Origin: Escherichia coli
Lineage (GTDB): Bacteria; Pseudomonadota; Gammaproteobacteria; Enterobacterales; Enterobacteriaceae
Direction: 5' to 3' (one strand)
NCBI RefSeq assembly: GCF_003334815.1
Contig: NZ_QOWO01000003.1
DNA length: 64,000 nucleotides
This document shows, one piece after another, positions 19,078-19,327 of this stretch (the stretch's first letter is position 1; every line of letters starts with the position of its first letter). The position numbers were made by a program, and so were the translations under genes. The notes under the pieces were generated by a model. The model was not told the origin of the DNA, made no database searches, and saw only the letters and a program-made list of their open reading frames with translations.

Positions 19078-19327
19078 ATATCCACAGCGACGCGATGCGT
19101 TATTGCTGGTTTTTGTTGTCTCTGACAAACTCTTGTAAACAGAGTTATCCACAGCCTCAGGCTGTAATCTTAATTTCAAAGAAACTTCGCACGGTGAATA
19201 GTATTTTTTTAACCTATTGATAGATAAGTTAAAAATTAAGATTCCGTTTTGTCGAGTCGATCACTTGACGATTTTATTCGTCTTGAATTGCAATGCGTTT
19301 TTATTTTTATTCACAAGCTGTGGATGA
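19078..19327. other. datA: datA-like DnaA-titration locus: DnaA boxes at 19078-19086 (ATATCCACA), 19145-19153 (TTATCCACA), 19307-19315 (TTATTCACA), 19319-19327 (TGTGGATGA, reverse), with an IHF-consensus site at 19210-19222 (TAACCTATTGATA)
   Basis: Two perfect and two one-mismatch TTATNCACA 9-mers plus a YAANNNNTTGATW site in 250 bp of non-coding DNA between the tRNA-Gly genes and queG, the map position recalled for datA. Confidence 0.5.

Follow-up and report, generated by a model that had tools for sequence, protein, structure and literature searches.

In Escherichia coli, four systems are known to determine whether DnaA carries ATP or ADP, and hence when the chromosome is replicated; the datA locus is one of them. 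[quoted passage not shown] Box 7 is a low-affinity box beside box 2 and in the same orientation (PMC5835720), box 4 stimulated hydrolysis in vitro and is not essential in vivo (PMC5742627), and box 1, over which a terminator extends, is dispensable for DnaA-ATP hydrolysis (PMC10950094). DARS1 and DARS2 resemble datA in being non-coding chromosomal clusters of DnaA boxes that alter the nucleotide state of DnaA, and DARS2 also shares with it the need for IHF, DNA looping and negative supercoiling (PMC11724364). The output of the DARS elements is ADP release, whereas that of datA is ATP hydrolysis, and DARS2 additionally needs Fis. The layout of the DARS core, which was read from K-12 DARS1 and DARS2, comprises box I, 5 bp, an inverted box II, 3 bp and box III (in K-12 DARS1, TTATCCACT attcc TGTGGATAA cca TGTGTATTA); boxes I and II are head-to-head, whereas the essential boxes of datA are head-to-tail.

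The left half of oriC (R1, the IHF site, R5M and the low-affinity boxes) is like datA in its same-direction oligomer of ATP-DnaA and in the IHF bend between boxes (PMC5742627). The interval between the boxes that flank the IHF site is longer in datA, which has neither an unwinding element nor a GATC cluster, and IHF binds datA after, not before, initiation. The DnaA-box clusters of Bacillus subtilis and Streptomyces coelicolor act by titration and are unrelated to datA in sequence and context. These non-oriC clusters also restrain initiation (PMC10950094; PMC3245932), some of them regulate neighbouring genes, and IHF and ATP hydrolysis go unmentioned in the abstract of PMC3245932.

Here we compare with these systems a site in a 64-kb stretch of E. 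coli DNA (64,000 nucleotides, analysed as a whole and referred to as the window), which is almost certainly the E. coli datA locus and as such would lower the active initiator, ATP-DnaA, once replication has begun. Window positions 19060-19420 align with K-12 MG1655 at 100% identity, without differences, starting at MG1655 4392659, and 286 of the 286 bases of the datA element are identical between the window and the K-12 records. MG1655 positions were obtained by adding 4,373,599 to the window position, an offset supported by yjeV (window 19293-19346, MG1655 4,392,892-4,392,945). The MG1655 match is located directly downstream of glyY, between glyY and queG, and the flanking genes orn, tRNA-Gly and queG are common to the window and K-12. 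K-12 datA (94.7 min; MG1655 about 4,392,677-4,392,926) has the identical sequence, with boxes 1, 7, 2, 3 and 4, the IHF site, the 56- and 84-bp spacings, the tRNA-Gly operon and the convergent queG all shared with the window, and differs solely in its upstream operon, which has three tRNA-Gly(GCC) genes against two in the window.

The initial annotation had read the site as a datA-like cluster of DnaA boxes around an IHF site, placed where datA is mapped relative to the tRNA-Gly genes and queG; alignment confirmed both the interpretation and the position, since K-12 datA maps here and not elsewhere. Its adjacency to queG also holds, with the specification that queG is convergent and that datA lies at the 3' end of this gene, not at its promoter. 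Because published datA mutagenic primers (PMC10950094, primer table) map onto the window sites, the sites that had been picked out are those that were manipulated experimentally in datA. RefSeq records have no datA label; all that they show at the site is yjeV or, in other records, a 'hypothetical protein'. The element is already known and nothing in the window stretch is new; the recovery of an unlabelled datA from the letters of the sequence is a sanity check of the scan, and its value for the window is a correct annotation.

All five motif coordinates given at the outset, for two perfect boxes, two one-mismatch boxes and an IHF consensus, were exact when read from the sequence. DnaA box 1 (19078-19086, plus strand) is ATATCCACA, with one mismatch. 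The essential box 2 (19145-19153, plus strand) is TTATCCACA, a perfect match, and the published primer subDnaAbox2_L substitutes exactly these nine bases. The essential IBS (19210-19222, plus strand) is TAACCTATTGATA, which fits the consensus YAANNNNTTGATW, and in the published primer ChdatAsubIBS the TTGATA of 19217-19222 is replaced by AAGTAC. The essential box 3 (19307-19315, plus strand), oriented as boxes 7 and 2, is TTATTCACA, perfect to TTATNCACA, and box 4 (19319-19327, minus strand) is TGTGGATGA, or TCATCCACA on the minus strand, with one mismatch, inverted and 3 bp after box 3. A single IHF site is thus found between the high-affinity boxes 2 and 3, both perfect and both on the plus strand; its distances from them, 56 bp to box 2 and 84 bp to box 3, are those of K-12.

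The four boxes initially listed are retained, but the list left out the essential low-affinity box 7 (19133-19141, plus strand), which points the same way as box 2 and ends 3 bp upstream of it; its exact 9-mer is probably TTGTAAACA, with two mismatches, which is the sole fit. From the start of box 7 to the end of box 3 (19133-19315) the element measures 183 bp, in agreement with the size published for minimal datA. The essential core is made up of boxes 7 and 2, the IHF site and box 3. Two further boxes inside queG, at 19690-19698 (CTATTCACA) and 19976-19984 (TTATCCTCA), both on the minus strand and each with one mismatch, are candidate outer boxes of the original ~1 kb datA fragment; their addition gives two perfect and four one-mismatch boxes, which matches the numbers for that fragment (PMC5835720).

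The arrangement was compared with 2000 dinucleotide-preserving shuffles of the window. Motif totals over the whole 64 kb do not exceed chance, with 2 perfect TTATNCACA boxes observed and 2.02 expected, 52 boxes with at most one mismatch observed and 47 expected, and 3 IHF consensus sites observed and 2.28 expected; their clustering is above chance. The sole two perfect boxes of the 64 kb are on the same strand and 162 bp apart, a distance of at most 162 bp being reached in 11 of the 2000 shuffles, and four boxes fell inside 250 bp in 67 of 2000. A perfect-box pair enclosing an IHF consensus was reproduced in none of the 2000 shuffles, and a chance origin of the arrangement was rejected on this count.

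Upstream of the element, the window holds two tRNA-Gly(GCC) genes on the plus strand, at 18872..18947 (ARAGORN; Rfam tRNA, 69.1 bits) and, as the last copy, at 18984..19059 (ARAGORN; Rfam tRNA). K-12 has three (glyV, glyX and glyY), and in the alignment the window is without one tRNA-plus-spacer unit. The single tRNA-Gly spacer in the window is the K-12 glyV-glyX spacer, as would be expected if the two-copy form arose by unequal recombination between the repeats. By a rough estimate, a collinear match to the two-copy arrangement occurs in ~105 of 5426 complete E. coli genomes. The probable glyV-X-Y promoter, read from the sequence at 18787..18814 on the plus strand (-35 TTGCAG, 16-nt spacer, -10 TATAAT), sits 58 bp upstream of the first tRNA and would be the source of read-through across datA; with two tRNA-Gly copies it is 112 bp nearer datA than in K-12. 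A consensus scan of 18650-19500 returned no sigma-70 promoter, the scan being too strict for a region where a promoter is known, because the -35 element matches at just three of six positions.

The terminator or attenuator hairpin TglyV-X-Y (19071..19118, plus strand) contains box 1 and is followed by a U run, and its RNA fold has an energy of -14.3 kcal/mol (z = -2.29). Box 1 also lies in the stretch, about 19077-19099, that is bracketed by the published deletion primers delter_L and delteronly_R. In K-12, the terminator overlaps box 1, and transcription from PglyV-X-Y reads through the IHF site of datA (PMC10950094). Two further terminator-like matches, at 19151-19165 and 19249-19271, were rejected since their hairpins are not conserved in other species, and 19249-19271 folds no better than shuffles. 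At the locus, only the two tRNAs scored above threshold in Rfam; a YrlA match at 18897-19036, across parts of both tRNA-Gly genes, reached 40.2 bits against a gathering score of 69 and was rejected, the tRNA-like module in the YrlA model being its most likely cause.

Conservation was assessed in complete E. coli genomes and in a scan of 100,044 species, with one genome each, for the pattern box, 50-62 nt, IHF consensus, 78-90 nt, box. When 1.1 kb including the site was used as a query, all 5426 complete E. coli genomes gave a match, and the matched region holds orn, tRNA-Gly and queG; the 286-bp datA element is single-copy in 5426 of 5426, falling below 95% identity in just three. The scan gave more than 120 loci against a chance expectation of less than 1 (a rough estimate assuming even base composition). 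Among the matches listed, 33 belong to other species of Enterobacterales, in the genera Escherichia, Enterobacter, Cedecea, Buttiauxella, Pantoea, Tatumella, Hafnia, Edwardsiella, Serratia, Rahnella, Rouxiella, Photorhabdus, Xenorhabdus, Providencia and Morganella, and wherever the flank sufficed, queG was found beside the element and tRNA-Gly(GCC) upstream of it, which is the genomic context of the window.

In an alignment of the window with these 33 species (n = 34), box 2 is invariant in 34 of 34 sequences, as are the last bases of box 7, ACA, and the following GA, after which comes G or C. The IHF core and box 3, the latter as TTTTAT.CACA, are invariant or nearly so, and the spacings are 55-58 bp from box 2 to the IHF site and 82-86 bp from the IHF site to box 3. 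A box 65-68 bp upstream of box 2, the position of box 1, is present in 26 of the 34 sequences, and box 4, allowing two mismatches, in just 13 (Escherichia, Enterobacter, Cedecea, Buttiauxella and Pantoea). The parts that are essential by K-12 mutagenesis (box 7, box 2, the IHF site, box 3 and the spacing) are therefore the parts that evolution keeps, and some lineages of Enterobacterales have lost box 1, which is dispensable, or box 4, which only stimulates. The single copy in E. coli and the fixed spacing across Enterobacterales suggest that the datA core is under selection.

On the other side of the element, queG (epoxyqueuosine reductase; 19329..20468, minus strand, among the listed open reading frames) was placed from the K-12 annotation by the alignment offset, its 5' end being taken from K-12, and base-level alignment covers it to 19420. 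It is convergent with the tRNA operon, and its stop codon at 19329 abuts box 4. The 17-codon reading frame yjeV (19293..19346, plus strand; translation MRFYFYSQAVDESGVTR*) runs across boxes 3 and 4 into the end of queG; it is annotated in K-12 and is a 'hypothetical protein' in other strains. In the Enterobacterales alignment its ATG is not conserved outside Escherichia, though the DNA is, and yjeV is probably not a real gene and looks like an annotation artefact over a protein-binding site.

Conservation in Enterobacterales extends to two more blocks, both situated between the IHF site and box 3, namely 19259-19267, which is GATCACTTG and contains the sole GATC of the element, and 19281-19306, which is TTGAAT..CAA...TTTTTATTT. 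Inspection of both blocks by eye gave no match to a DnaA box, a Fis consensus or a promoter, nor to any other site that has a name.

The account of the datA mechanism is drawn from reviews, later papers of the same field, and a 2024 paper with its primer table. [quoted passage not shown] According to the K-12 literature, read-through transcription from the tRNA-Gly promoter keeps IHF off datA before initiation; after initiation, IHF occupies the single site between the boxes in a cell-cycle-timed manner, its binding stabilised by negative supercoiling. ATP-DnaA binds boxes 2 and 3 with high affinity and the weak box 7 by cooperation, all of them head-to-tail, and in a model that the authors postulate the sharp bend made by IHF would form a loop joining DnaA at boxes 7 and 2 with DnaA at box 3. 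The datA-IHF complex promotes hydrolysis of DnaA-bound ATP to give inactive ADP-DnaA, and read-through is in turn blocked by IHF, by the terminator over box 1 and by DnaA at box 2. A footprinting study of IHF across the genome 'did not substantially detect' the protein at datA (PMC8407004); targeted ChAP-qPCR detects it there (PMC10950094). Deletion of datA in the wild type raises ATP-DnaA by just a few percent (PMC5835720), and a strain without any of the four extrinsic DnaA regulators is described as behaving and growing almost normally (PMC11331064 abstract); DDAH matters only modestly for the physiology of the cell.

The main activity is taken to be hydrolysis because point mutants of the IBS, box 2 and box 7 copy the datA deletion phenotype (PMC5835720). 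It is improbable that the locus is instead a pure titration sink, with boxes that only soak up DnaA and a dose that doubles upon replication soon after initiation. Titration was the original model of datA and is part of the truth, as datA 'also directly titrates DnaA protein' and point mutants of box 2 or the IBS only reduce titration by datA plasmids (PMC5835720). A mere sink, however, needs no strict conservation of spacing and orientation, yet these are conserved across an order of bacteria, and titration as the sole mechanism is largely refuted.

Less probable still, and by a clear distance, is that the locus is first of all a transcription device, in which bound DnaA and IHF would halt the tRNA-Gly transcript like roadblocks and protect queG, with secondary effects on replication. 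Read-through is indeed reduced by IHF at the IBS, by DnaA at box 2 and by the terminator over box 1 (PMC10950094), and the transcription units converge at datA, where the hairpin and U run of 19071-19118 are found. The authors of PMC10950094 nevertheless read transcription as a regulator of IHF binding and not as the purpose of the locus, and the reported phenotypes give no support to a purely transcriptional role; datA translocation experiments are among those reported in PMC5010248. A DARS-type element reactivating ADP-DnaA, or a cryptic origin, can be dismissed for practical purposes: DARS2 and oriC likewise combine DnaA boxes with an IHF site, but the DARS core layout is absent from 19060-19345, where the sole inverted pair, boxes 3 and 4, has a 3-bp gap and no third box, and the AT-rich 13-mer unwinding element (GATCTNTTNTTTT, on neither strand) and the dense GATC cluster that lie beside the boxes of oriC are lacking, with one GATC in 286 bp being below the window average.

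Elements with the spacing of datA, the hydrolysing element to which we assign the window locus, were also found outside Enterobacterales; 87 of the scan matches listed are non-enterobacterial. Among these 87, 34 end in a box, 3 bp, a second box, 5 bp and an inverted box, an order that on the opposite strand corresponds to the layout of the DARS core, and another 25 have at least a second direct box. The 34 are mostly from Oxalobacteraceae (Massilia, Janthinobacterium, Duganella, Rugamonas and Pseudoduganella). Oxalobacteraceae loci of the DARS-like type include L002, L007, L010, L016, L017, L022, L023, L026, L027 (9201-9393), L037, L048, L083, L088, L090, L097, L103, L106, L108, L109, L117 and L120, among others, and those of Methylophilaceae are L014, L039, L058, L059, L074, L087, L098, L104 and L114. 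In the Methylophilaceae elements the inverted box has two mismatches, and in those of Sutterellaceae it is missing. In the Oxalobacteraceae and Methylophilaceae elements, which are intergenic, the DARS-like core is accompanied by an IHF consensus 82-84 bp away and an extra box 56-59 bp beyond (83-84 and 56 bp in the 34 matches), and this is the spacing of box 3, the IHF site and box 2 in datA.

A third type of element is represented by ~15 loci among the matches listed, mostly from Rhodanobacteraceae (with relatives, L004 at 4127-4299, L018, L019, L024, L031, L036, L064, L071, L084, L110, L113 and L118). Its layout is TTATGCACA, ~58 nt, the IHF site, ~84 nt, a weak box such as TTCCCCACA, gac and TTATCCACA, and the weak box, 3 bp and strong box mirror boxes 7 and 2 of datA on the opposite side of the IHF site.

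Neither queG nor tRNA-Gly adjoins any of the Betaproteobacterial DARS-like or Rhodanobacteraceae elements; their neighbour genes are conserved within a family and differ among families. The Methylophilaceae element is next to ribD/tatD and mtnA, that of Rhodanobacteraceae usually adjoins argS (argS/coaBC), part of the Oxalobacteraceae elements adjoin a UvrD-like helicase gene, and the Sutterellaceae element neighbours what we take, from reading the sequence, to be a hemE-like gene. The sign of the GC skew is unchanged across the element in Methylophilaceae, Sutterellaceae and most Rhodanobacteraceae loci; in Oxalobacteraceae loci the skew is weak and its sign changes in several. A reading of the non-enterobacterial matches as replication origins was rejected, as GC skew and a gene context with neighbours other than dnaA argue against it. 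In plainly unrelated matches (Clostridia, Chryseobacterium, Lachnospiraceae) the spacings sit at the edges of the allowed ranges, so that the search pattern does not by itself impose a clustering at 56-59 and 82-86 bp.

In the literature searched, no description was found of datA- or DARS-like loci in Betaproteobacteria or of the Rhodanobacteraceae elements, although absence there is no proof of their being unpublished. We offer tentatively, as a possibility that is rather on the unlikely side, that a module with the layout of datA (box, 56-59 bp, IHF site, 82-86 bp, box) may be in general use for the control of DnaA by an IHF loop and not be peculiar to Enterobacterales. If these elements are functional, Betaproteobacteria and Xanthomonadales would have undescribed datA- or DARS2-like regulators, and the choice between hydrolysis and nucleotide exchange may depend on the arrangement of boxes at the ends of a shared loop.
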